DNA from: an uncultured Chloroflexia bacterium
Lineage (GTDB): Bacteria; Chloroflexota; Limnocylindria; Limnocylindrales; CSP1-4
Assembly: GCA_963741445.1 (NCBI GenBank)
Contig: CAVUIE010000004.1
Span: 187,756 to 251,755 of the forward strand
Length of the DNA stretch: 64,000 bases
Direction of reading: 5' to 3'
Part shown: in pieces, positions 13,776-36,900 of the stretch
Position numbering within the stretch: position 1 is the stretch's first letter
Layout: every line of letters starts with the position of its first letter
Program-made: the position numbers and the translations under genes
The notes under the pieces: generated by a model
What the model was told of the DNA's origin: nothing
The model's input: the letters and a program-made list of their open reading frames with translations, nothing else
The model's database searches: none

Positions 13776-13781
13776 CGGCGC

Positions 13782-18137: not shown

Positions 18138-19380
18138 CTAGGGGAAGACGCTCCGCAGGGCCTCGCGGAGGCGGCCCAGCCCGCCGCCGCCGGGCGCGGA
18201 CTCGTAGCGCAGCGGCTCGCCCGAGCTGAGGCTGATGGCGCCCCACTGGAGGAGCCCGACCGCCGTGCTGTACGACGGGTTGAGCAGGGTGTCGACGAGG
18301 CCGGCGATGCCCGCCGGCGCGGCGACGCGGACCGGCATCTGGAGCACGCTCCGGCCGAGCTCCGCGGCGCCCGCGAGCTGGGCCGCGCCGCCGGTCAGGA
18401 TGACCCCGGCCGGCAGCATCCCGACGCCCGCGGCGCGGATCTCGTTGCCGAGCAGCTCGAAGGTCTCGCGCATCCGCGCCTCGATGATCTGGCAGACCTC
18501 GAGCCGGCTCACGGTCCGCCCGGCGTCCTCGCCGAGGACCGAGACGCTGATCTCCTCGTCGTCGGCCTCCTCGACCGCGCGCAGGTCCGCGGTGCCGTGG
18601 CGGATCTTCAGCTCCTCGGCGACCTGGAGGCTGGTCTTGAGCCCGATCGCGACGTCGTTGGTGACGTTGTTGCCGCCGACCGGCAGGACGCGCGTGTGGA
18701 AGGGCGAGCCCTCCTGGAAGAGCGCCAGGTCGATGGTGCCGGCACCGATGTCGGCGACCGCGACGCCCAGCTCCTTCTCGGTCTCGGACAGGACGGCCTC
18801 GGCGGACGCCAGCGAATCGGCGACGAGCTCGTCGATCTTCGACGCCGGCCGCGGACACGCACTTGGTCAGGTTCTGGACGGCCGTGGCGGACGCGGTGAC
18901 GATGTGGGTCTCGACCTCGAGCCGCAGCGCGCTCATCCCGAGCGGGTCCTTGACGCCCTCCTGGCCGTCGACCGTGAAGCCGCGCCGCTCGACGTGGAGG
19001 ACCTCGCGGTTGGACGGGATCGAGACCGCGCGGGCGACCTCGATGGCGCGGTTGACGTCCTCGCGGGTGACCTCGCGATGGTGCGCGGTGACCGCGACCT
19101 GGCCGGGCGAGTTGATGCTCTCGACGTGCTGGCCGCCGACGCCGACGAAGGCGCGGTCGATCTTCCAGCCCGACAGGCGCTCGGCCCGCTCGACCGCGTC
19201 CGCGATGGAGCGGATGGTCTGGTCGATGTTGATGACCACGCCCTTCTTGAGGCCGGAGGCGGGAACGGTGCCGTGGCCCATGATCGTCAGCCGGCCGTCG
19301 CGGCTCACCTCGCCGATGAGCGCGCAGACCTTGCTGGTGCCGACGTCGATGCCGACGAGGACCGCTTCCCGTTCCACCAT
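18138..19380 (-). CDS. ftsA: Cell division protein FtsA, with frameshifts.
   Basis: The N-terminus is 'MVEREAVLVGIDVGTSKVCALIGEV...'. The C-terminus '...LTGGAAQLAGAAELGRSVLQMPVRVAAPAGIAGL...' is in another frame. Confidence 0.85.
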
Positions 19381-19411
19381 CTTGTCCGTCTCTCCCGTCC
19401 GTGCTGTCGAT

Positions 19412-19735
19412 CTAGAGGAAGTGTCGCCGGATGAGCGCCACGTTGTTGAAGATGCGCAGGCCGAAGGTGATGAGCGCTACGAGGTAGAGATCCAGGCCGA
19501 GCCGGTCGCCGACGAAGGTGAGGAGCACGGCGATGATCGCATTGACCAGGAACCCGCTGACGAAGATTCGATTGTCGTAGACCCCGTCGAGCTCTGCACG
19601 GACCGCCCCGAGCACCGAGTCCAGGGCGGCGAGGATCGCCACCGCAGAGTAGCGGCTGAGCTCGAAGCTGACGTTGACGTTGAGGACGAGGCCCGCAAGG
19701 ACGCCCACGAGGAGCCCGAGCAGGGGAAGCAGCAC
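19412..19735 (-). CDS. sbp: Small basic membrane protein Sbp/YlxX-like (DUF1290).
   Basis: It is a 107-aa ORF with two hydrophobic helices, lying between ftsQ and ftsA as in Bacillus dcw clusters. Confidence 0.45.
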   Translation of the reverse strand: MLLPLLGLLVGVLAGLVLNVNVSFELSRYSAVAILAALDSVLGAVRAELDGVYDNRIFVSGFLVNAIIAVLLTFVGDRLGLDLYLVALITFGLRIFNNVALIRRHFL

Positions 19736-19825
19736 GCTGTCGTCGCCCTCGATCCGGTGGGTTTCGGCAAGGCTACCCGACCGCCAGCGGGCGCGGCAAC
19801 CGTCCGCGCAGGCGAGGCCGGCGCC

Positions 19826-20746
19826 TCACCCGGGCGCCGAGGGGCTGGCGACGGCTTGGCGTGGCCGACGTGGGCTGCGTGGCTCGGACGGGGGCTTCGG
19901 GCGGGTCGGGGTCGGCTTCGGGACGTAGGTGCCCTCCGTGCCGGAGGCGAGGATCACCCGCTCGACCGTGTCCTCGCGCCCGGCGAGCAGGCTGCGCAGC
20001 AGGCGGACCTGCTCCGGGATGAGGTCCGGGGTGCGGATCGTCGGGGTGTAGATGCCGAAGACCGCGGTCCAGCCGCTCGGATCGGAGCGGACGAGGAAGC
20101 CGTTCTCGTCGGTGAGGACGATCGACAGTCCCGTCGCCTGGCTGCCCACGTCGGCGGGGACCAGCGAGGCCAGCCGCGTCGCGGCGTCGAGATCGACGGG
20201 GTCGAGGGTGCTGCCCGCGATCAGCCCGGCCGATGCGGACCGCCGGTCGTCCACGACCGGCAGCCCGGCCGTGGCCGCGCCGGGCACGTCCGGCAGCTCG
20301 GCGAAGAGCTTGCCGTCGGCGTCGACGAGGAACTGCAGGTCGCCGACCTTCCAGATCAGGATCGGCTCGCGCTCCTCGAGGGTCACGGCCAGGGTGTCGG
20401 GGAACTCGACGCCGATCCGGGCGCGCTCGACCGTCGGCAGGCGCTCCAGCTCCGCCTCGAGCGGGTCGGTCGAGATGCGGAACAGGTTCTGGCCGCGGGC
20501 GCCGGCGATGGCGGCCTCGACCGCCGCGGGATCCGTCCAGACGGGCGTCGCCGTGAGCCGGACGCGGGCGTAGTCGAAGGCGCTCGACGACGAGACGCCG
20601 TAGAGCGCGCCGAGGCTGGCGAGCATGACGAGCGCCGCGCCGGCGCGGATCGGCGTGAGGCGCGCCGACGACGCGCGCCGGACGCGGGGTGTCCGGCGAC
20701 CCGGCCCCAGCGGTGTCTGGCGGCGGGTCGGCGGACGGAGGCTCAT
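19826..20746 (-). CDS. ftsQ: Cell division protein FtsQ/DivIB.
   Basis: A basic N-terminus is followed by a TM helix and a POTRA-like region ('RVRLTATPVWTDPAAVEAAIA...NLFRISTDPLEAEL'). Confidence 0.75.
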   Translation of the reverse strand: MSLRPPTRRQTPLGPGRRTPRVRRASSARLTPIRAGAALVMLASLGALYGVSSSSAFDYARVRLTATPVWTDPAAVEAAIAGARGQNLFRISTDPLEAELERLPTVERARIGVEFPDTLAVTLEEREPILIWKVGDLQFLVDADGKLFAELPDVPGAATAGLPVVDDRRSASAGLIAGSTLDPVDLDAATRLASLVPADVGSQATGLSIVLTDENGFLVRSDPSGWTAVFGIYTPTIRTPDLIPEQVRLLRSLLAGREDTVERVILASGTEGTYVPKPTPTRPKPPSEPRSPRRPRQAVASPSAPG

Positions 20747-20749
20747 CGC

Positions 20750-21862
20750 GGCAGGTCCGCTCCGGTGAGGCGGCCGGTGACGCGCAGCGGCCGCGCGGTC
20801 GCGCGCGAGCTCGACGACCCGCTCGCAGACGTCCGCGAACGCGTAGCCCGCCGGCGGACGGCATCGTCGGGAAGAGGCTGATCGGGGTGAAGCCCGGGAT
20901 GGTGTTGATCTCCGAGACGACGATCCGCTCGCCCGCGACCAGGAAGTCGACCCGGGCGAAGCCCTCGCAGCCGATCGCCCGGTAGGTGTCGCGCGCGAGC
21001 TTGAGGATCGTCGCCTTCTGGGCGGGGCTCACCTCGGCCGCGGTCGACGTCTCGGACAGGCCCGGCGTGTACTTGGCGGCGTAGTCGTAGAACTCGTGGC
21101 CGGAGATGATCTCGCCGGGCCCGTACAGCTCGAGCGCGTCGTTGCCGAGGATCGCGACCTCGAGGTCGCGCGCGCCGGCGAGGTAGGTCTCGACGAGGGC
21201 GTGGGTGTCGTAGCGGAACGCGAGGTCCAGCGCGGCCGGCAGCTCCGCCAGGTCGTGGACGAGGGTCATGCCGACCGACGACCCGAGCCCCGACGGCTTG
21301 ACCATCAGGCGCGGGTCGTCGGCGCCGGCGGCGAACGCGGCGAGCTCGGTCGTGACGGCGTCCGGGTCGTCCCGCCAGCGGGCCGCGCTGACCTCGCGCC
21401 AGTCGACGACCGGCAGGCCCAGGCCGCGGCACATCCGCTTGAACAGCCGCTTGTCCATGCCGAGCGCCGAGGCCGCGACGCCGGCGCCCGTGTAGGTCAG
21501 GCCGGCCGCCCCGAGCATCGCCTGGACCGTGCCGTCCTCGCCGAACGGCCCGTGGAGCGCGATGAAGACCACGGGCGGCGGGTCCGCGGCGGCCAGCCGG
21601 TCGATCGCCGCGCCCGCGGTCAGCGGGCCGTCGGCGCCGAGCCCACGCGGGTCGTCGTAGGCCGCCGCGGGCCGGTCGCCGCGGGCATGGTCGAGCGGCA
21701 GCCACCACCAGCCGCCGTCGAGGTCGATCAGCACCTGGCGCACCGGGTGGCCGAGGCCGGCGAGCGCATCGGCGACGGCCGTGCCGGACACGACCGACAC
21801 GTCGTGCTCGGCCGACGGGCCGCCGAGCAGGACCACGACCGGGACCCGTGGGTCGCTCACGA
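20750..21862 (-). CDS. ddl: D-alanine--D-alanine ligase, with a frameshift near the C-terminus.
   Basis: 'VSDPRVPVVVLLGGPSAEHDVSVVSG...MVKPSGLGSSVGMT...EINTIPGFTPISLFP' carries ATP-grasp Ddl signatures. Confidence 0.85.
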
Positions 21863-22812
21863 TGCCGGCTCCCAGTCGCGCCAGTCGCCGACGAACTCGA
21901 TCTCGGGCTCGAGCGTGACCCCGGCGCGCTCGGCGACGACCGCCCGGACGTGCTCGGCGAGGCGGCGGACGTCGGCCGCGGTGCCGCGCTGGTCGTTGAC
22001 GATGAAGTTCGCGTGCTTCTCGGACACGGCGGCCCCGCCGATCCGGGTGCCCTTCAGCCCGGCGGCCTCGATCAGGCGTCCGGCCGAATCGCCCGGCGGG
22101 TTGCGGAACACGCTCCCGGCCGACGGGATCCCCAGCGGCTGGTGGGTCCGGCGCCACGTCCGGATCTCGTCGAGGCTGGCGGCGATCGCCGCGGGGTCGG
22201 CCGGCGCCAGGTGGAAGGTCGCGTCCATCACCAGCTCCGGCGGCGCGCCGTCCGCGACGTGCTTGAAGCGGCTGTCGCGGTACGCGAACCCGAGGTCGGC
22301 GACGTCGAGCGAGCCCTCCGTGCCGTCCGCGGCCAGCACGCTCGCCGACTCGATGACGCCGGCGATGTCGCCGTCGTGCGCCCCGGCGTTGGCCCAGACC
22401 GCGCCACCGACCGTGCCCGGGATGGCCAGGCCGAACTCGAGGCCGGTCAGGCCGGCCTTCTGGGCCTCGGTCGCCGCGCGGGCCATCTGGACGCCCGCCT
22501 CGGCCACCAGCCGCTCCCCGTCGATGCGGATGCCCTCGGCGCGGACCTGGATGACCAGGCCGCGGATCCCGGCGTCGGCGATGACCAGGTCGCTCCCCCG
22601 CCCCAGCAGGAAGTGCGGCAGGTCGCGGCTGCGCGCGAACTGGACGAGCTTGCGCAGCTCGAACCGGTTGTGCGGCGTGACGAAGAGGTCGGCAGGCCCG
22701 CCGACGCGCATCGTCGTGAACCGCCCGAGCGGCTCGTCGCGCGACGTCTTGACCCCGATCCGCCGCTGGATCTCGGTGCCGATCGCGATGGCGTCGAACG
22801 CGGCGATCACGG
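21857..22812 (-). CDS. murB: UDP-N-acetylenolpyruvoylglucosamine reductase MurB.
   Basis: '...GVKTSRDEPLGRFTTMRVGGPADLFVTPHNRFELRKLVQFA...' places the FAD-binding domain and MurB C-terminus in one frame. Confidence 0.85.
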
Positions 22813-23968
22813 CGCCACCCCGCGCGAGACCCGGTCGATGGCGTCGCGGTCCGGCAGCGGCCGGCGCTCGCCGGCGGCCATCACGAGCTCGGCGACCGCG
22901 TCGGCGGCCGCCGGCCGGCCGAGCGCGCGGGCGGCGGCCGACATCGCGAGGTGGCGCGCCGGGTCGTCGAGGATCGCCGCGGCCTCGACGAGCGCGTCGG
23001 CGTCGAACGCCTCGTCCTCGATCAGGCGGGCGGCCCCGGCGTCCACGAGGACGCGCGCGTTGGCGCGCTGGTGGCCCGCGGCGTGGGGGTACGGGACGAC
23101 GATCATCGGCACGCCGAGCGCGGCGACCTCCGCGAGGGTCGAGGAGCCGGCGCGCCCGACCACGAGGTCCGCGGTCGCGAGCGCCGCCAGCATGTCGTCG
23201 CGCAGGAACGGATACGGCCGGTAGCGGGCGCGCAGGTCGGCCGGCAGCGCCTCCCGGTCCGCGAGCGCCGCGGCGTACGCCTCGTCGCCGGTCACGTGGA
23301 TCACCGTGACGCGCTCGACGAGCCGCCCGATCGCGCCCGCGACCGCGGCGTTGAAGCGGCGGACCGCCTGCGAGCCGCCGAAGACCAGGAGGACGCGCTC
23401 GCCGCCGGGCACGTCCAGGCGCGCTCGCGGCGGCCTCGCGGTCCACCTCGCGGGTGTCGCGGATGGGCGTCCCGGTGAGGTAGCACGGCACCTTCGGCGC
23501 CGCGTCGTGGAGCGCGGTGCAGGTCGCCTCGAACGAGACGGCCAGCGCCGTGGCGAGGCGGGCCGTCGCCCGGACCGAGCGGCCGGGGATCACGTTGCCG
23601 TCCCACATGACCACCGGGATGCGCAGCGGGGCCGCGGCCATCAGCACCGGGATCGCCACGTAGCCGCCGGTCGTGAAGATGACCGCTGGGCGCTCGGCGG
23701 CGAGCATCGCGGCCGCCTGCGGCACCGAGACGCCGAGCCGGATCGGGTCGAGGACGACATGGACGTCGCGCGCGGAGGTGCGCAGGGACCGGGCCGCGAG
23801 CCGGCGCATCGGGATGCCCGACGGCGGGACGAGGGTCGCTTCGAGCCCGCGGTGGCCACCCAGCCAGCGCAGCTCAGGAGCGTCCGGACGGCCGCGCAGA
23901 GACCGGGCGACGGCCAGCGCCGGGTAGATGTGTCCGCCCGTCCCCCCGGCGACGATCAGCGATCGCAT
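22807..23968 (-). CDS. murG: Undecaprenyldiphospho-muramoylpentapeptide beta-N-acetylglucosaminyltransferase MurG, with a frameshift in mid-gene.
   Basis: The N-terminus is 'MRSLIVAGGTGGHIYPALAVARSL'. The C-terminal half '...GVPMIVVPYPHAAGHQRANARVLVDAGAARLIED' is in a second frame. Confidence 0.85.
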
Positions 23969-23971
23969 CGT

Positions 23972-25200
23972 CGTTCCACGTCCCCTTTTCGACGGTCTCG
24001 CGCGAGATCGAGAGCAGGATCCCGACCGCGGCGAAGCTGATGATGAGCGATGAGCCGCCGGCGCTCACGAACGGCAGGGTGATGCCGGTGATCGGGAAGA
24101 GCGCGACCACCACCCCGATGTTGATGAAGGCCTGGATGCACAGCCACGCGGTGATGCCCGCGGCGAGGAGCGCCCCGAAGGTATCAGGCGCGGCCAGCGC
24201 CACCCGCATCCCCGAGTACGCGAGCGCGAGGAAGAGGACCACGACGATGCCGGCCCCCAGCAGGCCGAACTCCTGGCCGACCTCGGCGAAGACGAAGTCG
24301 TTGAAGGCGTTGGGCACCGAGACGACGCTCGCCCCGAGGCCCGTCCCGAGCAGCCCGCCGACGCCGAGCGCGAGCAGGCCCTGGATCGTGTGGAAGCCGG
24401 TGCCCGAGCTGGTCGGACCAGGGGTCCAGCCAGGAGCGGATCCGCGTCCATCTGGTAGCCGCGCAGGCCGGCGAAGATCACCACGGGGAGCGCCGCCACG
24501 ACCATCGCCCCGAGATGGACGAGGTTGGCGCCGGCCACGAAGAACATCGTCATGGCGGTCAGGCCGATGACCATGGTGGTGCCGAGGTCGGGCTCCTTGA
24601 AGACCAGCACCACGATCGGGGCGACGATGATCATGAACGCGAGCGTGCCGCCCCAGAACCCGCGGACCCTGGTCCCGCGCTTGGCGAACCAGTGGGCGAG
24701 ATAGACGACCATCGCCAGCTTCGCGATCTCGGCCGGGTGGATCGCCGGCAGGAGCGGCAGCTCGAGCCAGCGGGCCGAGCCGCCGACGACGCGGTTGAAC
24801 TGCGGGACGAACACGAGGATGAGCAGCGCGACGGCGACGATGTAGAACGGCACCGAGACGAGCCGGAGGTAGCGGTAGTCGACCTTCATCATCACGACCA
24901 TCGCGAGGATGCCGAGGACCGCCCACTGGATCTGCGGGCCGACGGTGGCGAACGTGTCCTCGTTCGAGAGGTAGCCGCGGATCGCCGACGACGAGTAGAC
25001 CATCAGGATGCCGATCGCGGTGAGCGCGACGACCACGACGAGGATCACGTAGTCGGCCTGGTGGCGCTCGCGCTGGACGACCGACCCGTGGTCCGCGTGC
25101 GGGCCGGCTGGCGGTTCGCGGTCTTGCGCTGCTCCTCGGGCGTGAGCTCGCGCTCGCGGCCGGGGAGACCCAGGCGCGGGATCGGCGGGGCGAGGTTCAT
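23972..25200 (-). CDS. ftsW: Lipid II flippase/peptidoglycan polymerase FtsW (SEDS family), with frameshifts.
   Basis: '[26 protein letters not shown]...' is followed by SEDS-type TM segments ('...VGGSARWLELPLLPAIHPAEIAKLAMVVYLAHWF'). Confidence 0.85.
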
Positions 25201-28200
25201 CGCGGCCCTCCTGCGCGGCGCTCGGCCGCGAGCCCGGCGACGGCGGCCTTGAAGGCCCGTCCGCGGGCGGCGTAGTCCTCGAACATGTCGAAGCTCGCGG
25301 CGGCCGGGCTCAGCAGGACGGTCGCCGGACCCGCGCCACCGTCGTCGGCGAGGGCCTCGCGGGCGAGGGTGTGCACGGGCAGGGGTTGATGAACAGCCCG
25401 AGCATCGACTCGATCGCCGGGCAGCGGCGCCGAGCGGCCGGAGACCGTCGCGCCGAACACGACGTCGTCCTCGCCGCTGTACCGGCTCAGCAGCAGCGCC
25501 CAGGCGCCCTGGCACGATGCGTGTTCAGGGTCAGCTGCTGCTGGCGCCCGAGACGCCTCGAGGGCCGAGTCGCCTCGGCGGACAGCTCGGAGTCGCTGCT
25601 CGGCATGATCGCCCTCGCGGCCGTCGCCGCGCGCGGCCGGCCGGTCCGCTCGCACGAGCGGCGTCGGGCGCGTGAAGCCCGCGAGCGTCTTGCGCCAGAA
25701 CGCCTCGGCCGCCGTCGAGTCCTGCCGCTGCAGCCAGGCGATGAAGTCGCGGTAGGGCCGGGCCGCTGGCAGCGGATCGTCGCGCCCGCTGCGACGGAGC
25801 CTCGTAGGACAGCAGCACCTCCTTCAGCAGCGAGCGGCAGCGACCAGCCGTCGAGCAGGAGGTGGTGATGGCTCCAGACGAAGCGCCAGGCATCGTCCGC
25901 GACGCGCAGCAGCGCCAGGCGCATCAGCGGCGCCTCGGCCAGAGGTCGAAGCCGCGCGCTCGATCCGCCTCGAGGAAGCGACGCCAGCCGTCGCTGCTGC
26001 TCGGCCGACGGCAGCCCGCGCCAGTCCTGCTCGTCCCAGGGCAGCGGACACCTGGCGACGGACGACCTGGAGCGGTTCCGCCGAGCCCCTCCCAGGCGAA
26101 GCCGGTCCGCAGGACGGCGTGGCGGTCCACCAGCGCGCTGCCAGGCCTGCCGGAAGGCCGCGACGTCGAGCTCGCCCTCGCAGCGTGCAGCGCACCTGCT
26201 CGAAGTACACGCCCGACTCGGGCGCGTACAGGCTGTGGAACAGCAGCCCCGACTGCAGCGGGGACAGCGGATAGACGTCCTCGATACCCCGCGCCGGAGC
26301 CCGACCAGAGCGATCCAGCCGGCGCTCTGAGTCGAGCCGGGCGAGCGGGAAGTCGGACGGCGTGCAGCCGCCGGCGCCGGGACGACAGGCAATGGGCGAT
26401 CAGCGCGCCGCAGCGCGCGCCAGGAACTGCGACGCCAGCGCGCTCGATGGTGGCCGCCGGTGCGACGTCGGCTGAAGGTCCAGCAGGACGCGCAAGCGGC
26501 CCGCCGACGACGCCGCCGTTGACGTCCGAGCGTATGCGCACGCCGCTGGCGATCGCTCTGGAGCCGGGCCGGTCGACTCGGGCGCCAGCGGCGAACGGCG
26601 ACCGGGCTCGGGCAGCGCCCGGTCGAGCTGCCCGAGGTAGTTGAAGCTGACCTCGGCCCGCGGACCGGCCGCCAGCCGCCGCCGCACGTCCGCGTCGGGG
26701 TGCAGGATAGCGCAGCAGCCCGTAGCCCAGGCCGCGCCCCGGCACGCCGCGCAGCTGCTCCTTGACCGAGCGCAGCGCCTCCCCCGGCCCCGTCGCCCGC
26801 GCCCAGCCTCCAGCCGCACCGGGAACAGGCTGGTGAACCAGCCGACCGTGCGCGACAGGTCCACGTCCTCGAACAGCTCCTCGCGCCCGTGGCCCTCCAG
26901 GTCCACGAGGCACGCCCCCGGCCCCGTCCACGGCGCCACCGCCTGCGCCAGCGCCGTCAGCAGCACGTCGTTGATCTGCGTCCGGTACGCCGCCGGCACC
27001 TCGTGCAGCAGCGCCTGCGTCTCCGCCTCCGTCAGCGCCACCTCCACCGTCTCCGCCGACGCCGCCGTGTTCTCCCCGCCCGCGTGATCGACCGGCAAGC
27101 GCCGCCACCGGCCGGCTCCGCCCCGCCTCGCCAGTAGCCCGCCTCCTCCGCCAGCGCGTCCCCGCGCGCGTACGCGCTCAGCCGCTCGGCCCACTGCTGG
27201 AACGACGTCGTCTTGGCCGGCAGCTCGCAGCGGCTCCCCCCGACGCGAGCTGCTCGTAGGCGGTGAGCAGATCCTCGAGCAGGATGCGCCACGAGACGCC
27301 GTCGACCACCAGGTGGTGCACCACCAGCAGCAGCCGCGCGGCCTCGTCCCCCCGCGTCGAACAGCACCGCGCGCAGCAGCCGGCCCGCGCGTCAGATCGA
27401 GGCTCGCCTGCACCCGCGCGGCCGCGCGCTCCACCGCGCCCGCCCGCTCGGCCTCCGGCAGCGCCGCTGAGGTCCACCTGCTCGAACACCCCGCCGGCCT
27501 CCTCGCCCGGCCGATCCCCATCCTGCTCGCCAGCCGCCCGTGCTGCCGCCGGAAGCGCAGCCGCAGCGCGTCGTGATGGCGCAGCAGGTGCTCGCACCGC
27601 CTGCCGCAGTCGCCCGGCGTCGAGCGGCTCGCGCACCTCGAGCAGCACCGCCTGGTTGAAGTGCTGCGGCTCGGCCAGCTCCTGCTCGAAGAACCAGCGC
27701 TGGATCGGCGTCAGCGGCACCGGCCCCGTCACCGGCCCCTGCTCCGCCGTCGCACCGGCGGCGCCCCTGCCCACGACCGCGGCCAGCTCGGCGATCGTCT
27801 GGTGCTGGAAGAGCTGCCGCGGCGTCACGTGCGAGCGCCGCGCCCGGCGCGCCGCGCGACGATCTGGATGCTCGAGGATCGAGTCGCCGCCCAAGCTCGA
27901 AGAAGTTGTCGTGGACGCCGACCCGCTCGAGGCGCAGCACCTCCGCCCAGATCCGCGCCAGCACCTCCTCCTCCGCCGTGCGCGGCGCCACGGTACCGCT
28001 CGCCCAGCTCCGGCCGCTCCCCCGCCGGCGCCGGCAGCGCCCGCCGGTCGACCTTGCCGTTGGGCGTCAGCGGCAGCGCCTCCAGCACCACGAACGCCGC
28101 CGGCACCATGTACTCCGGCAGCCTCTGCTCCACGCGCTGCGCGCAGCTCCCCCGCCTCCACCCGCTCCCCCTCGCGCGGCACCACGTACGCCACCAGCCG

Positions 28201-30357
28201 CTTGTCCCCGCCGGCCCCGCCTGCGCGCGCCACCACCGCCTGCCCGCACCGCCGCGTGCTCGGCCAGCACCGCCTCGATCTCGCCCAGCTCGATCCGGAA
28301 GCCGCGGATCTTCACCTGCTCGTCCAGCCGCCCCAGGTACTCGCAGCGTGCCGTCCGCCCGCCACCGCGCCAGGTCGCCGGTCCGGTACAGCCGCGCCCC
28401 CGCCTCCCCGCCGAACGGATCGGGCACGAACCGCTCCGCCGTCAGCTCCGGCCGCTGCCAGGTACCCGCGCGCCAGCCCCGCGCCGCCGACGTACAGCTC
28501 CCCGGCCACGCCCACCGGCACCGGCTCCAGCCGCGCGTCCAGCACGTACACCCGCAGGTCCGGCATCGGCACGCCGATGACGCTCGCCGCCGCGCGCACC
28601 GCCGCCGCCGTCACCGGCTCGGTACGTCACGTGCACCGTCGTCTCGGTGATCCCGTACATGTTGACCAGCCGCGGCCGCTCCGTCGCCGTGCCGCGCGCA
28701 GCCACGGCGCGCAGCGTCGCGTAGCATCCAGCGCCTCGCCGCCGAAGATCACGCAGCCGCAGCGCCAGCGCCTCGCCGTCCCGCCGCCCCTCGTCGGCCC
28801 GCACCAGCTGCCGGAACGCCGACGGCGTCTGGTTCAGCACCGTCACGCGCTCCTCGCACGAGCAGCCCGTAGAACGCCTCCGGCGACGCGCGCACCCAGT
28901 ACGGCACGACGACCAGGCGCCCGCCGTGCGCAGCGCGCCCCAGAGCTCCCACACCGAGAAGTCGAACGCGGCGACGCGCACGGCCTGCTCGAGCGTCGCC
29001 GCGCGGGCCGTGCGCTCGAGCCCCGCGGCCCGGAAGTCGGCCTCGAGGCGCGGACCGCTCTCGCCGATCAGCACCGCCGCGACCGCGCGCTCGGCGACGA
29101 CCGGCGGGAGGCCGGACAGGTCGACGCCCTTGTCGCGGCCACCGGCGATGAGCACGACCGGCGGCTCGAACGAGCGGAGCGCCGCGACGACGGCGTCGGG
29201 CTGGGTGCCCTGCGAGTCGTTGACGAAGCGGACGCCGTCGATGGTCGCGACCGGCTCGAGGCGGTGCTCGACGCCCGTGAACGCCGCGGCCGCGGCGCGG
29301 ATCGCGTCCGGCTCGACGCCGAACAGGAGGCCGACCGCGATGGCGGCCAGCGCGTTCGAGACGTTGTGGGCGCCGGGGATGGCGAGCTCGGCGACCGGGA
29401 GGATGCGGCCATCCGGGCCGGTCGCGGCCGTGCCGCCGCCGGCGATCGCGAGCCGCTCGACATCGTCCGCGACGATCCAGCCGTCGACCACGCCGAGGCC
29501 GCCGGCGACCGGCGGGCGCTGGCCGTAGGCCACGACGCGGCGCGCGACTCGCGTCCGCGTACGCCGCGACGACCGGGTCGTCGAGGTTCAGCACGAGCGC
29601 CCCGGCCGGGTCGACGAGGTCGGCGAGCCGCCGCTTGGCGGCGCCGGTACGCCTCGAGCGAGCCGTGGCGGTCGAGGTGGTCCGAGGTCACGTTGGTGTA
29701 GACCGCGACGGTCGTGCCCCGCGACAGGGTCGGGAGCTGGAGCTCGGACAGCTCGTAGACGACGCGGTGGTCCGCGGTGAGCTCCGGCAGCCGCTCGACG
29801 ATCGGGATCCCGATGTTGCCGCCGAGGACCGCCGGGTGCGCCGGGTCGGCCGCGAGGATCGCGGCCGCGAGCGACGACGTGGTGGTCTTGCCCTTCGTCC
29901 CGGTCACGCCCGATCGTGGGCGCCGGGCAGAGCCGCAGGAACAGGTCCGGCTCGGAGACGACGGCCGGGGCGGTCTCGTCGCCGGCGGCGCGGGCGTCGA
30001 CGAGCGCGCGGAGCGCCGCGCGGAGGCGCGGCTCGGTGGTCGGGTAGTCGGGGTTGATCGCCGGGCGACGAGGTCACGAGCGCCGCGCCCGCCCAGGCCG
30101 TCGCGGGGTCGACGTCCGGTCCGGCCAGCAGCCGCACCGACCGTCCCTCGAGCGCGTCGATCGCCGCGCCGAGGTCGGCCGCCGGCCGGCCGTCGTAGAC
30201 CGTGACGTCCGCGCCGGCATCGGCCAGGAACCGCGCCAGCGCGATCCCGCTGCGGGCGAACCCGAGCACGGTGACCGGCCGGTCGCGGAGCGACGCCGGC
30301 GCGGACGCCGTCGAGCGTCAGCGCGTCCGGATCGATCGGTCGGGTCGCGGTCATCGT
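25197..30357 (-). CDS. murD: UDP-N-acetylmuramoylalanine--D-glutamate ligase MurD. Its coding sequence is interrupted in-frame by a 3.6-kb NRPS fragment. The 5' part runs 28967..30357 and the 3' remnant runs 25197 to about 25330.
   Basis: The N-terminal part runs from '[19 protein letters not shown]...[19 protein letters not shown]...' to '...[11 protein letters not shown]'. It is followed directly by the NRPS motif '[12 protein letters not shown]'. The MurD C-terminus '...[38 protein letters not shown]' resumes at about 25330 and ends in an ATGA overlap with ftsW. Confidence 0.8.
25331..28966 (-). other. Internal NRPS fragment: A domain (A4 to A10), PCP, epimerization domain and a partial condensation domain. 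It has no start or stop and is fused in-frame to murD at both ends.
   Basis: Read on the minus strand the motifs run in this order: [12 protein letters not shown] (A4), [15 protein letters not shown] (A5), [15 protein letters not shown] (A7), [13 protein letters not shown] (A8) and [30 protein letters not shown] (A10). Then come FFELGGDS (PCP), [12 protein letters not shown] and [17 protein letters not shown] (E1 and E2), and [16 protein letters not shown]. The condensation-domain motifs are [35 protein letters not shown] (C3) and [22 protein letters not shown], ending at FINPLPVHT. Confidence 0.8.
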
Positions 30358-30360
30358 CAT

Positions 30361-31342
30361 CACGCCAGCCGGTTCAGCGAGGCGAGGAAGAGGGTCACGC
30401 CGAGGAGCGCCGCGAGGATGCCCGACGATCCAGAACCGGATCGTGATCTTCTCCTCGTCCCAGCCGCCCAGCTCGAAGTGGTGATGGAGCGGGCTCATCC
30501 GGAAGATCCGTTTGCCGCCGCTCAGCTTGAAGTAGCCCACCTGCAGCATCACCGAGCCGGTCTCGATCACGAAGATGATCCCGATGAGCGGCAGCACCAG
30601 GACCTGGCCGGTGATGAGCGCGGTGACCGCCAGGCGTGGCGCCCAGGGACAGGGCTCCGCTGTCGCCGATGAAGATCTGCGCCGGATGGACGTTGAACCA
30701 GAGGAACCCGAGCAGCGCGCCGATGATCAGCGCGCAGAGGAGCGCGAGGTTGGCCTGGTTCGGCGTGTTCAGCAGCGCGATCAGCATGTAGGCGACGAAC
30801 GCGATGGCGACCGTGCCGCCGGACAGGCCGTCGAGGCCGTCGGTGATGTTCACGCCGTTGGCCGCGGCCACGATCGCGAACGCGGCGAACAGGACGTAGA
30901 TCCGCGCGTCGATCGGCACCTTGCCGATGAACGGCACCGCGATCGCGGTGATGTCGTAGGTCTGCTGGATCTGGTACGCGGCGACGAAGGCGACGACCGT
31001 CAGCCAGATCAGCTTCTGGCGGGCGCGGATGCCCTCCCCCGTCCGGGCGTTCAGGTAGTCGTCGAAGGCGCCGAGCAGCCCGACCATCGCCAGCGCGGCG
31101 ATCGGCGCGAACGTCGAGGCGTCCGGCTGCTGCTTCAGGAAGAAGTAGATCGCGAGGACCACCGCCACGATCAGCAGGCCGCCCATCGTGGGCGTGCCCT
31201 CCTTCGCGTAGTGGCTCTCGGGGCCTTCCTCGCGGATCCGCTTGCCGAAGCCGATCGCGCGGAGGAGCCGGATGTACGGCGACATCAGGATGACCACGAG
31301 GGCGAACGCGAGCAGCAGGCCCTGGATCAGCTCGACGGTCAT
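30361..31342 (-). CDS. mraY: Phospho-N-acetylmuramoyl-pentapeptide transferase MraY, with two frameshifts (around 30420 and 30650).
   Basis: '[55 protein letters not shown]...[12 protein letters not shown]...GDSGALSLG' carries MraY motifs. The C-terminus '[51 protein letters not shown]' is in other frames. Confidence 0.9.
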
Positions 31343-32769
31343 CGCGCGGGACCCCGCTCGGCCCGGAGCGCGTCCACGAGGGCGTCGAGGCCGATGCCGC
31401 GCGAGCCCTTGACCAGCACGACGTCCCCGTCGCGCAGCCGCGGGCGGAGGACCTCGAGCGCGCTCGCCGCATCGGGCACGACGAGGATCCGCTCGGGCGC
31501 GAGCCCGGCGTCCGCGGCCGCCGTCGCGATGGCCCCGACCGCCGAGCCGACCACGACCAGCAGCGCCGCGGTCCGGCCGGCGGCGTCCCCGACCGCGCGG
31601 TGGCCGTCCTCGTGCGCCTCGCCGAGCTCGAGCATCTCGCCGAGCACCGCGACCGGCCGGCCCGGGAGGTCGGCGAGGACCTCGAGGGCGGCCGCGACGG
31701 AGCCGGGCGAGGCGTTGTAGCTGTCGTCGATGACGGTCACGTCCGCAAGACGGACGAGCGTCATCCGATGCGGCGCCGACCAGCCGGCGGCGATGCCCTC
31801 GACGATCGCGTCGAGCGGGACGCCGGCGGCGAGCCCGACGGCGGCCGCGGCGAGCCCGTTGTGGACCGAGAGCCGGCCGAGCGACGGCGTCATGGCGGGA
31901 CGGCGCTCGCCGCCGGCGCGCAGCGTGAACCGCATCCCGTCGGTGCCGGCGGACGTCACCGCCTCGGCACCGACGTCGGCGTCGTCGGCGAAGCCGTAGG
32001 TCAGCGGTCGCGCCGCGGTCCGCGCCGCCATCCGGCGCACGATCGGGTCGTCGGCGTTGAGGATGGCCGTGCCGGCCGCCGGCAGGGCCTCGAGCAGCTC
32101 GCCCTTGGCCGCCTCGATGGCCTCGATGCTGCCGATCCGCGACAGGTGGACCGGCTGGACGGCGGTCACGACCCCGATCGACGGCCGCGCCATCGCGGCC
32201 AGGTCGGCGATCTCGCCGCCGACGTACATCCCCATCTCGAGGACCGCGGCCTCGTGCTCCGGGCCGAGCTCCAGGAGCGTGAGCGGCAGGCCGATCTCGT
32301 TGTTCTGGTTCCCGGCGCTCCGCAGCGTCCGGAAGCGCCGTCCGAGGACCGCGGCGACCGCCTCCTTGGTCGAGGTCTTGGCGATGCTCCCGGTGATCCC
32401 GACCACGAGCGGGTCGAACCGGCGGCGCCAGCCGGCCGCGACCGCGCCGAGGGCGGCGATCCCGTCGGCGACGCGGATGACGGTGACGTCGCCGAGCGCC
32501 GCCGGGTCCGCCGGCGGTCGGGTGACGAGGAGCGCGGCCGCGCCGGCGGCGACCGCGGCGGGCAGGTGGTCGTGGCCGTCCGTGCGCTCGCCCGGGAGCG
32601 CGACGAAGAGGTTGCCCGGGCGGACCACGCGGGAGTCCACCGCGCCGCCGCGGACGGGTCGGTCGGAGCGGGTCAGCAGCCGGCCGCCGGTCAGGCGCAC
32701 GAGGTCGTCGGCGGTGAGGGCCGGGCCTGGGTCGGTCACGCCCGGGAGTCTCGCATGGACCGTCGTCAC
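31339..32769 (-). CDS. murF: UDP-MurNAc-tripeptide--D-Ala-D-Ala ligase MurF. The gene is intact at 476 aa.
   Basis: '...DSRVVRPGNLFVALPGERTDGHDHL...GITGSIAKTSTKEAV...DDSYNASPGS...' is a MurF-type N-terminus and P-loop. It reads in a single frame. Confidence 0.85.
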   Translation of the reverse strand: MTTVHARLPGVTDPGPALTADDLVRLTGGRLLTRSDRPVRGGAVDSRVVRPGNLFVALPGERTDGHDHLPAAVAAGAAALLVTRPPADPAALGDVTVIRVADGIAALGAVAAGWRRRFDPLVVGITGSIAKTSTKEAVAAVLGRRFRTLRSAGNQNNEIGLPLTLLELGPEHEAAVLEMGMYVGGEIADLAAMARPSIGVVTAVQPVHLSRIGSIEAIEAAKGELLEALPAAGTAILNADDPIVRRMAARTAARPLTYGFADDADVGAEAVTSAGTDGMRFTLRAGGERRPAMTPSLGRLSVHNGLAAAAVGLAAGVPLDAIVEGIAAGWSAPHRMTLVRLADVTVIDDSYNASPGSVAAALEVLADLPGRPVAVLGEMLELGEAHEDGHRAVGDAAGRTAALLVVVGSAVGAIATAAADAGLAPERILVVPDAASALEVLRPRLRDGDVVLVKGSRGIGLDALVDALRAERGPAR

Positions 32770-34603
32770 CGGGCCGCGACCGGGCCGATCGTGGTCATCC
32801 GGTCGGTCAGGAGGTCGGGGGTGGTGATCGCGTCCGTGGCGATGCGCCGGAACAGCTCGAACGACATCACGGGCATCTCGAGGTGGCCGACCCGGACGAC
32901 GGTCGGCGTCCCTTCCTCGATGCGGACCGCGACGACGAGGTCGGGGACGCCCTTCTCGCGGCCGATGTAGCCCACGAACGAGTAGTTGAACAGGTCGACC
33001 TTCCAGGCGCCGCGACCGTGGTTGGCCTTCGGGTCCCAGATCTGCGCCGTCCCGGTCTTGCCGCCGACGTCGTAGCCCTTCACGAGCGTGCGGTCCTTGT
33101 AGAACGGCACGGTCGTGACGACGTGGCTCATCAGGCCGATCAGCTTGCGACGACAGGCGCTGGTCGATGACCTTGCGCCTTCGGCGGGTCGACGATCTCG
33201 CGCTCGCCGATCGCCTTCACGACGTGGGGCTGGACCAGCGATCCGCCGTTCATCAGCGCGGCATAGGCCGTCGCGAGCTGGATCGGCGTGACCGCCACGC
33301 CCTGGCCGAACGCGCCGTTGGCGAGGTCGATCTGCGCCCACGGCTTGAGGCCCGGGTCGCGAACGATGCCCGACACCTCGTTGGCGAGGTCGATGCCGGT
33401 CTTGGCGCCGAAGCCGAGCTTCAGCCAGGTGTCGTAGAGGATCGCCGACGAGGCGCGGGTCGACGGCGCGAGGTCGAGCGCGACCTTGGCGGCGACGACG
33501 TTGCGCGAGAAGGCGACGCCGTCCTCGAACGTCATCCAGCCCATGCCCTTCCGGTCGGCGTCGTCGATGTGGGCCCGGCCGCCGTCGAGCTTGAGCGTGC
33601 CCGTGTCCTTGATCCGCGTGTCGAGGGTGACGCTCTTGTGCTCGAGGGCCGCGGTCGCGGTCATCATCTTGAAGACGGACCCGGGCTCGTAGACGGACGA
33701 GACGATCGGGTCGATGAACCGCTCCGGGTGCTTCGCCGCGATCGCGCGGTAGTCGTTGGCGTCGTACGACGGATAGGTCGCCTCCGCGTAGACCTCGCCG
33801 GTGTACGGGTCCATGACGATGGCCGAGACGCTCTTGGCGTCGTCGGCGACGTAGGCGGCCAGGAGCTCCTGCTCCACGGCCAGCTGGAGGCCGGCATCGA
33901 TGGTGAGGCGGACGTCCTGGCCGGGCGTCCCGGGCGAGACGACGGTCGCGGTCTCGGGGATCGGCTGGCCGCGCGCGTCGCGCTGGAAGTCCGCGATGCG
34001 GGGCGATCCGCCGAGCGTGTCCTGGTAGGCCTGCTCCACGCCGTACTGCCCCGTGCCCTCGCGATTGACGAAGCCGAGGAGCTGCGCGCGCGAGCGTCGA
34101 GTCGCGACCGCCGCCGGCCTGCGGATAGACGCGCAGCGGCTCGGCCTCGAGGGTGATCCCGGTGAGCGCGCCGGTCCGCGATCGCGGCCCGGATCTGGTC
34201 GGCGACCGCCGGCTCGATCTCGCGGGCGAGGATGATGTAGGTCTTGTCGGTCAGCAGCTTGTCGCGGAGCGCGGCCGCGGCTGTGTCGTCCGAGGGTCAG
34301 GATGCGGACCAGCTCGTCGCCGGTCGCCTCGCGCTGCTGCGGCGTCAGGACCTTCGCGTTGGCCACCAGCCGGTCGCGCTCGACGGTGGTCGCCAGGACG
34401 ACGGTCCCGCTGCGGTCGTAGATGTCGCCGCGCCGGCTGGGCTCGCTGACCTGCTTGGTGGTCTGGGCGACGGCCTTGGCGGCCAGGTCGTCGCGCTGGA
34501 GGACCTGCCAGTAGGCGAGCCGGCCGACGACCGCGACCGCGGCGATCACGAAGACCAGCAGCAGCACCAGCAGCCGCGATCTCGAATCGGTCCGACCCAG
34601 CAT
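32766..34603 (-). CDS. ftsI: Peptidoglycan D,D-transpeptidase FtsI (class B PBP), with frameshifts.
   Basis: A TM N-terminus is followed by 'RGDIYDRSGTVVLATTV' (dimerisation domain) and the transpeptidase motifs 'YEPGSVFKMMTATAALE...FSRNVVAAK...KTGTAQ'. The sequence is spread over about three frames. Confidence 0.85.
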
Positions 34604-34618
34604 GGTTCGCTCGATCGC

Positions 34619-35002
34619 CTAGCGGGCCGGCAGGATGAGGGGGTCGCCGAGCTGGCCGAGCCCCGCATCGATGGCGAGCTTGCGGATCGCCGGCTCGTGG
34701 CCGAGGCGGCTCAGGTCGGAGTGGAGGTCCTGGGCCTTCGAATCGAGCCGGTCGCGGGTGACCTGCAGCCGCCCGATGTCGTAGCCCGGTCGCGGACTCG
34801 CGGACGACCTGGGCCAGCCAGAAGAACGCGAGCAGGAACGCGATCACGATCGTGCCGAGCACGAGGCTCCAGTGGCCCGGGCGCCGTCCGGCCCGGACCG
34901 CGGTCCGCATCTTCCGCCGGCCGAGCGTCGGGCCTTCGGCGATGCGCGGGCGTCCGCCGAGCGTGATGGTCCGTGGGCGGGCGCCCTCGTAGACGGCCAC
35001 CG
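34619..35002 (-). CDS. ftsL: FtsL-like septum formation initiator (single TM helix), with one frameshift around 34790.
   Basis: 'VAVYEGARPRTITLGGRPRIAEGPTLGRRKMRTAVRAGRRPGHWSLVLGTIVIAFLLAFFWLAQVVRESATG...' sits between rsmH and ftsI. Confidence 0.5.
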
Positions 35003-35003
35003 G

Positions 35004-35201
35004 TCAGTCGGCCGACATGAGGCGGAGGCGCGGGGCGCGCGGATCGAGGAAGGCGAACGGGTCGGTGGGGACGACGTTGGTCGTCTCGCCGTACTCGACC
35101 TCGAAGCCCTCCGGCTGATGGTGTCGGTCGTGGCGCTCGCGGACTTCGTGCTGCCGGCGGCCGTACGACTTGCGACGGCTGGACTGATGGTGCTTGCTCA
35201 T
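35004..35201 (-). CDS. Small highly basic hypothetical protein of 65 aa, behind a strong RBS.
   Basis: GGAGGAGcccccATG is followed by 'MSKHHQSSRRKSYGRRQHEVRERHDRHHQPEGFEVEYGETTNVVPTDPFAFLDPRAPRLRLMSAD'. Codon usage is GC3-rich. Confidence 0.5.
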   Translation of the reverse strand: MSKHHQSSRRKSYGRRQHEVRERHDRHHQPEGFEVEYGETTNVVPTDPFAFLDPRAPRLRLMSAD

Positions 35202-35279
35202 GGGGGCTCCTCCTTCCGTTCCTGCTGGCGTGGCCGGTCCCTCTGGTCGGCTCACGGGTCGTCGGTCGATCGGGCCCCC

Positions 35280-36227
35280 TTACGCGGCCAGGCGCTCGGC
35301 GGCCCGCAGCCGGGCGCTGCGGGCTCGGGGGTTGGCGGCGATCTCGGTCGCCGACGGGGTCAGGGACGGCCGGGTCACCATCCGCAGCCGCGGGTTCTTG
35401 CCGCAGACGCAGACCGGCAGCTCCGGCGGGCAGACGCAGCCACGCCGTTCCGTGGCGATGAACCGCTTGACGATGCGGTCCTCGAGCGAGTGGTAGCTGA
35501 GGACGACGAGCCGGCCGCCGGGCCGCAGCAGGTCGAGGGCGGCCGACAGGCCGGCCTGGAGCGCCTCGAGCTCCTCGTTGACCGCGATGCGCAGGGCCTG
35601 GAAGACGCGGGTGGCGGGGTGGGTCCGGCGCGGCTGGCGCGGGTTCGGCGGCGCGACCTTCTCGACCAGCGCGGCCAGGCCCTCGGCGGTGTCGACCGGC
35701 GCGGTCTTGCGCGCATCGACGATCGCCCGGGCGATGCGCGGCGCCTTCGGCTCCTCGCCGTAGCGCCGGAAGAGCGCGGTCAGCTCGGCGGTGTCGAGGG
35801 TCGCGAGCAGGGTCGCGGCCGGGACGCCGCGGCTGGTGTCGAAGCGCATGTCGAGCGGGCCGCCGGCGCGGAACCCGAAGCCGCGGTCCGTGTCGGCCAG
35901 CTGGAAGCTGGAGAGCCCGAGGTCGAAGAGGCAGCCGTCGACGGCGCCGAAGCCGGCCTCGGGCGCGACGGTCGCGAGGTCGTGGAAGTTCGCCTGGCGA
36001 AGGACGAGGCGATCGCCGAAGCGTGCTCGGAGGCGACCGTCCACTCTGGCGACGGCCGCCCCATCGGCATCGAGGCCGAGGAGGCGGCCATCAGGGTCGG
36101 TCGCCTCCAGGATCCGCTCGGTGTGCCCACCGCCGCCCAGGGTGGCGTCGATCTGAAGGCTGCCCGGCGCTGGAGCGAGCATCACGAGGACCTCCTCCAC
36201 CAGCACCGGCATGTGCCCATCCTTCAT
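35280..36227 (-). CDS. rsmH: 16S rRNA (cytosine1402-N4)-methyltransferase RsmH/MraW. The gene is intact.
   Basis: A GGAGGAG RBS precedes 'MKDGHMPVLVEEVLVMLAPAPG...'. SAM-binding motifs 'GGGGHTERIL' and 'LRPGGRLVVLSYHSLEDR' are present. Confidence 0.85.
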   Translation of the reverse strand: MKDGHMPVLVEEVLVMLAPAPGSLQIDATLGGGGHTERILEATDPDGRLLGLDADGAAVARVDGRLRARFGDRLVLRQANFHDLATVAPEAGFGAVDGCLFDLGLSSFQLADTDRGFGFRAGGPLDMRFDTSRGVPAATLLATLDTAELTALFRRYGEEPKAPRIARAIVDARKTAPVDTAEGLAALVEKVAPPNPRQPRRTHPATRVFQALRIAVNEELEALQAGLSAALDLLRPGGRLVVLSYHSLEDRIVKRFIATERRGCVCPPELPVCVCGKNPRLRMVTRPSLTPSATEIAANPRARSARLRAAERLAA

Positions 36228-36286
36228 CTCTCCTCCGTCCCGAACGATCGGATCCCGAGCGGATCCTGGAAGCGCATGTGGTGGCG

Positions 36287-36712: not shown

Positions 36713-36840
36713 CACCAGTCGGGCTTCCCCTGTCGTTGCGGTCGCGGTCGTCGCGTGCGGTACGGACATGCGGCTCGGGCCGCCGGCGGTGGCGGTGAGG
36801 CGGGGTTCTCGCCGGCGGGTCGGCCGGGTCGGTACGTTCC

Positions 36841-36866
36841 CCACTTTTCACCACTTCGCGCCACTT
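36841..36866 (-). promoter_or_regulatory. MraZ operator: three direct repeats (A/G)AAGTGG with exact 10-bp spacing.
   Basis: On the plus strand, CCACTT starts at 36841, 36851 and 36861. On the minus strand this reads GAAGTGGcgcGAAGTGGtgaAAAGTGG, immediately downstream of the -10 element. Confidence 0.65.
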
Positions 36867-36872
36867 CGGGCC

Positions 36873-36900
36873 ATATTAGCGTGTCAACGGCTCCCGTCAA
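36873..36900 (-). promoter_or_regulatory. dcw-cluster promoter (mraZ P1 equivalent): TTGACG-16 bp-TAATAT.
   Basis: The minus strand reads TTGACGggagccgttgacacgcTAATAT. A second TTGACA lies inside the spacer. Confidence 0.55.

Follow-up and report, generated by a model that had tools for sequence, protein, structure and literature searches.

A 3.6-kb NRPS segment inside murD of a Limnocylindria-type contig, probably a weakly supported stretch of a long-read assembly

The window, as the whole 64-kb stretch of DNA analysed here is called, appears to come from the chromosome of a Candidatus Limnocylindria-type bacterium (Chloroflexota), assembled from long metagenome reads at low accuracy. Its gene order murF-mraY-murD-ftsW-murG-murB is shared with Candidatus Limnocylindria (P0241, L162 and L001, the last being MFD02134.bin.2.11). 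The murD gene, which lies on the minus strand, is split at window positions 25373..28968 by a 3,596-nt stretch that codes for NRPS. The 5' part of the gene (28969..30360, minus strand; located by tblastn) encodes MurD residues 1 to ~465 together with the first base of an Asp codon, and the 3' part (25197..25372, minus strand; tblastn) runs from the last two bases of that codon to ...GGPR and the stop. This 3' part is 98% identical to the C-termini of P0241 and P0375, and its stop overlaps the start of ftsW (ATGA), an overlap that is identical in L162.

In the dcw cluster, murD is a single-copy and essential gene, and no second murD is found in the 64-kb window. An uninterrupted MurD reading frame of ~520 aa with both Mur_ligase domains is absent as the contig stands; Pfam finds Mur_ligase_M and Mur_ligase_C only after the insert has been excised and five frameshifts repaired. 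The excised, frame-corrected protein is 94% identical to P0241 over its full length. The window's murD thus differs from Candidatus Limnocylindria MurD by the 3,596-nt interruption and five 1-nt insertions.

The insert (minus strand) is contiguous and collinear with the region of one NRPS module boundary, comprising half an adenylation domain, a thiolation domain, an epimerization domain and part of a condensation domain. The truncated adenylation domain (28053..28968, minus strand; Pfam) extends from A4 (FDFSVWE) to A10 (NGKVDR) and lacks A1-A3. Its AMP-binding match covers only profile positions 215-384 of 384, while AMP-binding_C is matched over 1-76 of 76, so that no complete A1-A10 domain with a full AMP-binding profile is present. 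It is followed by a thiolation (PCP) domain (27775..27964, minus strand; Pfam PP-binding 2-66 of 67), which carries the GGxS attachment motif of the carrier Ser as LGGDSI at 27877..27894. A complete epimerization-type condensation domain lies at 26379..27723 (minus strand; Pfam Condensation 4-440 of 456), and a second Pfam Condensation stretch at 25373..26294 (minus strand) represents a truncated downstream condensation domain. The HHxxxDG motif of epimerization or condensation domains is present, and the second stretch is cut after GLFINP-LPV, a point past which donor-like modules read on (...LPVRV).

All NRPS core motifs of the insert are intact, and the corrected frame contains no in-frame stop; the insert is real biological sequence. 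The motifs named in the original prediction all occur in the translations, though spread over all three frames. Its view that the fragment is too truncated for a working module agrees with the Pfam results, in which the adenylation domain lacks A1-A3 and the last condensation domain is incomplete. A functional NRPS module in one continuous ORF is likewise not found, given 40-42 frameshifts. As assembled, the region encodes no functional MurD and no functional NRPS module.

The breakpoints were set by alignment to L001-L003, L162, L163, L165, L167 and L168. The window bases 28969|25372 are neighbouring bases in L001 (10907|10908), L162 (1794|1795), L165, L167 and L168, and no target base has been lost or gained at the insertion point. 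Removing the insert in silico restores AVRVADTLAREAL, which is identical to the closest MurD, P0241. The first base of the insert occupies codon position 2 and its last base codon position 1, and the Asp codon is split as G|AC. An NRPS fragment within murD, placed at 25331..28966 in the original prediction, is evident from both translations and Pfam, with the gene on the minus strand; alignment to relatives corrects the boundaries to 25373..28968. The 25331 end was 42 nt off because a 13-residue stretch assigned to the NRPS belongs to MurD. Both junctions do lie inside domains, as had been proposed, the terminal NRPS domains being incomplete by Pfam.

No terminal inverted repeat, direct repeat or target-site duplication was found at the insert ends (25373 and 28968). 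Pfam gives NRPS domains only, with no transposase, integrase, Hint domain or endonuclease in the insert. The reported lack of an IS, TIR or integrase at the junctions therefore stands, the insert being NRPS over its entire length. A mobile element, intein or intron within murD, for which the interruption at a single point is the sole support, was accordingly rejected as scarcely credible: the ends bear none of the expected repeats, and since all 3,596 nt are collinear with an NRPS module, no sequence is left over that could encode a transposase, integrase, Hint/endonuclease domain or reverse transcriptase.

Related genomes lack the insert. Their murD is uninterrupted at the same breakpoints in at least 8 related loci and in 80 of 80 more distant related loci, and the best 120 MurD homologues are uninterrupted without exception (514-531 aa). 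The insert-free relatives include short-read assemblies at 92-96% nucleotide identity.

The composition of the insert sets it apart from its surroundings. Its G3-C3 skew is +0.24, against -0.18 +/- 0.04 in host ORFs, with codons that favour G endings where all other parts of the window favour C. Across the 64-kb window, every 1.2-kb bin has a negative skew except those fully inside the insert (+0.34 and +0.38). The best protein matches of the insert have 62-67% identity. Its best hits overall are to Tectomicrobia, Verrucomicrobia, Gemmatimonadota and an unassigned NRPS contig, whereas the flanks are Limnocylindria. Two checks suggested earlier, comparing the insert with its flanks in taxon and in composition, thus both return a difference: the best matches lie outside Limnocylindria, and the skew changes sign only within the insert. 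Such an abrupt change in composition and gene-level taxonomy at both boundaries is a feature of long-read assembly errors.

The closest DNA relative is the L161 NRPS cluster on an unrelated contig (81% nucleotide identity), which also has a positive skew. The insert aligns end to end with two L161 modules (80.8% and 79.7%) and is 76-81% identical to four modules of that cluster. With multi-modular A-T-E-C NRPS (L161, ENA ERZ25039502 contig_298942) it shares domain order, core motifs and G-ending codons. Unlike the L161 NRPS, it is only a fragment, its adenylation domain lacking A1-A3 and its last condensation domain stopping at C5, and it has no start, stop or neighbouring NRPS genes. By its codon preference, its nearest relative and its intact motifs, the insert is both foreign and recent.

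One way in which such DNA could have arrived is a genuine recent, non-functional capture, with foreign NRPS DNA joined illegitimately into a broken murD. Capture of foreign DNA at a double-strand break, by illegitimate recombination or an NHEJ-type process, is known, for example as double illegitimate recombination during natural transformation. The clean, single-point insertion agrees with this, as do a foreign fragment with arbitrary ends and the lack of flanking homology or target duplication. Possible microhomology amounts to just 0-2 nt (CG) at the left junction and to none at the right, in a comparison with donor-like modules whose identity to the insert is no higher than 80%. Un-ameliorated foreign codon usage and intact motifs would mark the event as recent. 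At this locus, an event in vivo is hypothetical. Capture further implies that most or all cells carry the insert and that murD is a pseudogene, with a second murD elsewhere or a degenerating lineage. Illegitimate capture events are extremely rare, and one that disrupts an essential gene would be expected to be lost; murD is such a gene in the dcw cluster, the 64-kb window holds no second copy, and none of the relatives has the insert. A roughly ninefold step in error density that is confined to the insert, described below, would also be unexpected if all reads carried it. We regard capture as unlikely.

Sequence errors are concentrated in the insert. Frameshift-aware alignment to three NRPS homologues gives 40-42 frameshifts, and DNA alignment to four paralogous modules gives 41 unique 1-nt insertions. 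The frameshift density is 11.4 per kb over the 3.6 kb of the insert, compared with 1.3 per kb in the flanks (23 in ~18 kb), a difference of ~9x (binomial p = 3.5e-17) whose step coincides with both junctions. Error density is even across the four quarters of the insert, with the first errors lying 37 nt and 10-42 nt inside its ends, while the two adjoining flanks are error-free over 570 nt and 280 nt. A homology-free phase HMM finds 21 phase switches in the insert and 3-12 in other 3.6-kb bins. As a control for over-calling by the aligner, murF shows 0 frameshifts at 73-95% identity. A drop in consensus accuracy limited to the segment is a further feature of long-read assembly error.

Insertions outnumber deletions ~9 to 1, with an equal spectrum in the insert, the flanks and the Nanopore MAG L001. 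Because the spectrum is insertion-biased, the NRPS motifs are intact and no in-frame stop remains after correction, the indels are best regarded as technical rather than as decay. From the step at the junctions we infer much weaker read support for the insert, and from this that the contig would misreport the murD of the population. In L161, however, 21 unique 1-nt insertions occur in module m4, where the sister modules have 0-2; since error-dense patches occur in a plain NRPS contig, a high density is not proof of missing read support.

These frameshifts bear directly on the description of the locus as an in-frame fusion in which murD runs uninterrupted into the NRPS. The local codon phase of the NRPS equals that of murD at each junction, and the orientation is also the same, but no continuous MurD-NRPS-MurD frame exists: besides the 40-42 frameshifts of the insert there are five in murD, and the motifs are distributed over all three frames. 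The longest ORFs that cross the junctions encode 363 aa (28442..29533) and 152 aa (25197..25655). With 1-nt insertions throughout the window, the assembled text therefore encodes no fusion protein. The original prediction was right insofar as an error-free version would be in frame, and for this reason alone a real fusion stays under consideration.

Such a fusion would read MurD(1-465)-[A'-T-E-C', ~1,186 aa]-MurD(466-522) as one viable ORF, a horizontally acquired NRPS fragment being carried by a subpopulation of the Limnocylindria-type bacterium. It would require that MurD still folds and works, that translation reaches the stop overlapping ftsW, and that all frameshifts are sequencing errors, in which case the whole fusion is in frame. 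Preserved codon phase at both junctions, the absence of in-frame stops after frame correction and the retained ATGA overlap are in keeping with this. However, the insertion point lies inside the last Mur_ligase_C helix, just before the conserved LLSPAxASFD strand, and not in the variable loop that follows this strand. Both terminal NRPS domains are incomplete, leaving no plausible catalytic role. Foreign codon usage, the absence of the insert from every relative and the error-density step, which argues for weak read support, also weigh against a genuine in-frame domain insertion, and we consider it very improbable.

Of the explanations offered initially, an artefact through chimeric or mis-joined assembly gains support from composition, absence from relatives, truncation and low consensus quality, while the premise of a continuous reading frame does not hold. 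In the explanation we prefer, the 3,596 nt within murD would be a copy of part of a multi-modular NRPS gene that belongs to another soil bacterium. Support for the insert probably comes from a single read or a very small number of them, the insert being either a minority or single-molecule variant or a chimeric path kept by the assembler, and it would have escaped cleaning by polishing for that reason. The outcome would be a raw-read-like indel density in the insert beside an ordinary low-coverage consensus in the flanks. Long-read metagenome assemblers are known to report contig regions resting on a single read or a minor subpopulation, and also to yield multi-taxon chimeras and unsupported stretches >5 kb (10.1101/2025.04.22.649783). 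The catalogue of the closest relatives is Nanopore-only, built with metaFlye and one round of Medaka (PMC12313526).

The locus resembles the assembler errors of Trigodet et al. in several respects. Taxonomy and codon composition shift on a kilobase scale inside an otherwise syntenic contig, consensus accuracy falls exactly over the segment (known here from the contig sequence alone), and the context is that of a low-coverage long-read MAG whose closest relatives are Nanopore/metaFlye/Medaka MAGs. Among their cases, the clean single-base A-B-A arrangement is closer to a minor variant kept in a contig than to an end-to-end chimera of two genomes. With reasonable rather than firm confidence, we take the contig sequence here to be that of a minority variant, a single molecule or a chimera, and most likely not part of this organism's genome.

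Some observations run against an artefact. An A-B-A structure with zero target loss or gain is hard to obtain by random read chimerism or false overlap, and no extended similarity between the murD flanks and the NRPS that could seed a mis-join was found. A real DNA molecule with the insertion therefore probably existed. Having been sampled at MAG coverage, such a molecule could not have been extremely rare, which tells against the preferred explanation. The joint agreement of phase and orientation at the junctions has a chance of about 1 in 18 and is expected under selection for a translatable fusion.

Seamless junctions could also arise from a deliberate or accidental splice, in silico or in the laboratory, in which part of some other error-rich long-read contig entered this sequence, whether by data handling, as a synthetic control or in an engineered construct. 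The zero target bases lost or gained, the cuts at arbitrary points within domains and the insert's own error density, as if taken from a different assembly region, are consistent with such a splice. Yet neither junction bears a vector, adaptor, linker or restriction-site scar, the cut splits a codon, which a designer of fusions would avoid, and the data hold no positive sign of manipulation. A splice is thus rather improbable.

If the segment is an artefact, as preferred here, the locus is of practical use as a clear illustration: a kilobase-scale stretch of foreign DNA lies in a long-read MAG gene that is both single-copy and essential, and it can be recognised without reads. The signals are exact restoration of the orthologue on excision, a sign flip in G3/C3 skew and a frameshift-density step at the boundaries. 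Segments of this kind lead genome catalogues to overstate horizontal transfer and the numbers of biosynthetic genes and 'novel fusions'. If it is true and in frame, it would offer an unusual look at a Mur ligase that tolerates a giant inserted domain. In that case it would also show NRPS DNA captured illegitimately by an uncultured lineage from soil, and an essential enzyme very soon after it had received the inserted domain.

Frame errors also extend through the host genes, with mraY, murD, ftsW and murG all frameshifted in the window. By frameshift-aware alignment, the five frameshifts of murD are all +1 and lie in its 5' part, upstream of the junction, at 30293, 30066, 29641, 29540 and ~29.85 kb. 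The last of these was seen in two analyses and is missing from the window-specific error list. Further 1-nt insertions, at 30424 and 30634, fall in mraY.

The minus strand carries murF, mraY, murD, ftsW, murG and murB in that order, as read from a three-frame translation of window positions 25100..30400 and from ORF lists. Within this translation, MurD sequence gives way to NRPS sequence, and the original prediction of an NRPS fragment inside murD is correct. All of the NRPS and MurD motifs it named are present, but they are spread over all three frames of the minus strand. The uninterrupted in-frame splice that it had also proposed does not survive frameshift-aware alignment, which requires 40–42 frameshifts across the insert. 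With a self-written frameshift-aware protein-to-DNA aligner, used for both the insert and the dcw genes, 28969..25376 forms a single collinear alignment to the NRPS homologue P0028 (67% identity, 41 frameshifts). The alignments to the homologues P0001 (62%, 40 frameshifts) and P0004 (59%, 42 frameshifts) are likewise collinear, and nearly all frameshifts are +1. In Pfam searches, the frame-corrected translation of the insert contains an AMP-binding domain represented only by profile positions 215–384 of 384, AMP-binding_C, PP-binding, a complete epimerization-type Condensation domain and a second, truncated Condensation domain. Both terminal NRPS domains are incomplete. Once the insert is excised, murD can be aligned over its full length to P0241, the closest MurD; identity is 94% and five +1 frameshifts are needed. 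Neither a second copy of the insert nor a second murD occurs within the 64-kb window.

The boundaries of the insert are defined by related loci. Scanning one genome per GTDB species with a peptide pattern yielded 80 loci. Every one belongs to a Chloroflexota MAG, and most of these MAGs carry the label Candidatus Limnocylindria/Limnocylindrales or ‘uncultured Chloroflexia’. The top three, Nanopore MAGs from the MFD catalogue, are fully syntenic with the window at 85–93% DNA identity over >20 kb. In one of these, L001, 20906..10908 corresponds to window 15403..25372 and 10907..1239 to window 28969..38633. Identical breakpoints are found in the other two (L002 and L003), in a short-read JGI contig (L162, 1794|1795) and in the related loci L163, L165, L167 and L168. 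Since adjacent bases of L001 flank the insert, and the same breakpoints recur in the other relatives, the insert spans 25373..28968 (3,596 nt). It splits an Asp codon as G|AC, and excision restores MurD with a junction identical to that of P0241; no target bases were lost or duplicated. A search of both ends revealed no direct or inverted repeats and no target-site duplication, and microhomology at the junctions is ≤2 nt and uninformative. A mobile element or intein as the source of the insertion has a negligible probability.

The codon phase of the NRPS sequence matches that of murD at both junctions, with the insert starting at codon position 2 and ending at position 1, so an error-free fragment would have a length that is a multiple of three. 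Matching phase together with shared orientation has a chance probability of ~1 in 18, and is exactly what a viable in-frame MurD::NRPS fusion would show. Such a fusion is nonetheless very unlikely: the insertion point lies within the last helix of the Mur_ligase_C domain, directly before the conserved LLSPAxASFD strand rather than in the variable loop after it, and the NRPS sequence is cut inside a domain at each end.

The distribution of indels sets the insert apart from its surroundings. Errors are frequent throughout the window: relative to the three close relatives, it contains unique insertions of 1 nt (26) and 2 nt (6) versus 7 short deletions, and L001 shows the same insertion bias (16 versus 3). 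Window-specific insertions break mraY (1-nt insertions at 30634 and 30424), murD (30293, 30066, 29641 and 29540), ftsW (24449 and 24405) and murG (23428); other examples lie at 34090–34784 and 16193–16909. Because these four genes are essential and single-copy, their indels are consensus errors rather than biology. Across 15400..36900 the 1-nt insertions are clustered, with clean stretches of 2–3 kb between them, and are mostly G or C creating CpG.

Frameshifting indels reach 11.4 per kb in the insert against a background of ~1.3 per kb (binomial p = 3.5e-17) and are evenly spread over its four quarters (8, 11, 11 and 11). The aligner finds no frameshifts in murF with guides at 73–95% identity and the same five in murD with guides at 78–94%; the count in the insert is therefore not an artefact of distant homologues. 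A homology-free period-3 HMM detects 21 phase switches in the insert versus 3–12 in every other 3.6-kb bin. The change is abrupt at the junctions, with window-specific indels absent for 570 nt upstream and 280 nt downstream of the insert and the first indels inside it lying 37 nt and 10–42 nt from its ends. The indel spectrum is alike inside and outside the insert, with ~9:1 insertions, mostly of C or G creating CpG.

Natural pseudogene decay as the source of the frameshifts was ruled out by this excess of insertions over deletions, by a spectrum shared with the flanks and with an independent Nanopore MAG, and by the intact state of every core motif without nonsense codons. A methylated CTGGAG-type motif was likewise rejected as the cause of the errors, as five CTGGAG and four GTGGAG sites are intact in the insert and host sites are mostly intact. 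Inserted bases show a strand asymmetry of 19:4 in the insert versus 6:11 in the flanks (p = 0.05 after correction for substrate abundance), a weak sign of single-orientation read support.

The insert matches its surroundings in GC content; its foreign character emerges from codon usage. Frame-corrected insert codons have a GC3 of 0.94 and a G3–C3 skew (preference for G over C at third codon positions) of +0.24, favouring CTG, GTG, ACG, CCG and GCG. Confident host ORFs have a skew of −0.18 ± 0.04 (range −0.26 to −0.11). Scanned in 1.2-kb bins, the whole window is negative except for the two bins that lie wholly within the insert (+0.34 and +0.38), and the skew is positive in all four insert quarters. 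The closest sequence found is L161, a 31-kb Flye-style contig (ENA ERZ25039502, contig_298942; 71% GC) made up almost entirely of NRPS genes, which share the positive skew. The insert aligns from first to last base to two of its modules at 80.8% and 79.7% nucleotide identity; another two modules align at 78% and 76%. Against these four modules the insert has unique insertions of 1 nt (41) and 2 nt (4) versus 5 deletions. L161, reached through the contig of the P0028 match, is the only relative (81% nt) closer than the protein-search matches. The true donor gene was found neither by protein search (≤67% identity) nor by a peptide-pattern scan of metagenome contigs (≤53%). All NRPS core motifs of the insert are intact and none of its 1,181 frame-corrected codons is an in-frame stop; the fragment therefore belonged to a working gene until very recently. 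Judged by composition and coding integrity, the insert is foreign and recent.

It is also unique to this assembly among the MurD homologues, related loci and JGI contigs searched. The best 120 MurD homologues from a search of 5.8 billion proteins are all 514–531 aa, with no fusion or truncation at the insertion point. All 80 scan loci have a MurD match of ~350 residues over about 1,000–1,100 nt, and JGI metagenome contigs contain no copy of a 28-mer that bridges the left junction. Exact look-ups of the proteins from four window ORFs, two of them with corrected Met starts, likewise matched no record. Fixation of a captured, non-functional NRPS fragment in murD seems rather unlikely.

We favour, on balance, the reading that the insert does not represent the organism’s genome and that its read support would be far weaker than that of the flanks. 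Weaker support best explains the combination of foreign composition, absence from every relative, ends cut inside domains and much poorer polishing, although the step from error density to read support is one we infer. Assemblers for long-read metagenomes keep segments originating from single reads or minor subpopulations in variable regions, and also produce multi-taxon chimeras and stretches >5 kb without read support (10.1101/2025.04.22.649783). The pipeline behind the closest relatives is Nanopore-only, using metaFlye and one round of Medaka, and indel errors persist in its low-coverage MAGs (PMC12313526).

Besides the matching codon phase, two observations count against an artefact. In L161, the fourth module (18391..22068) has 21 unique 1-nt insertions versus 0–2 in its three sisters (4540..17309), indicating that consensus quality may differ >10-fold between neighbouring, similar modules of one long-read contig; an ordinary NRPS contig thus has patchy error density too. 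Furthermore, random chimeric reads or false overlaps do not yield a host–foreign–host geometry in which the target is perfectly restored, and the murD flanks share only chance matches of ≤22 nt with the NRPS sequence as potential seeds of a false overlap. From this geometry and the lack of seeding similarity, there was probably a real DNA molecule carrying the insertion. A splice made in silico or by engineering is unlikely.

Several further features of the locus were observed. The murD stop and ftsW start overlap (ATGA) at window 25197..25200, minus strand, as they do in L162 (1967..1970) and relatives. This arrangement probably makes ftsW translation depend on murD being translated to its end, in which case any out-of-frame insertion in murD would be polar. 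On the same strand, murB directly follows murG (21857..23968). Frameshift errors cause spurious FtsW–MurG–MurB fusions in ORF and gene calls, one example being the 975-aa call at 13250..16177 of L163. The stretch at 36900..38250 is the least conserved relative to L001–L003. Small indels are numerous, among them deletions of 10 and 19 nt, GC3 drops to 0.85, and more distant relatives cannot be aligned through it without a break. This stretch, upstream of the dcw genes, is probably either intergenic or fast-evolving. The protein cluster of P0121 (90% identity) has a MurF representative yet many MraY members, apparently a clustering artefact that may stem from gene calls fused over the overlapping murF and mraY genes.
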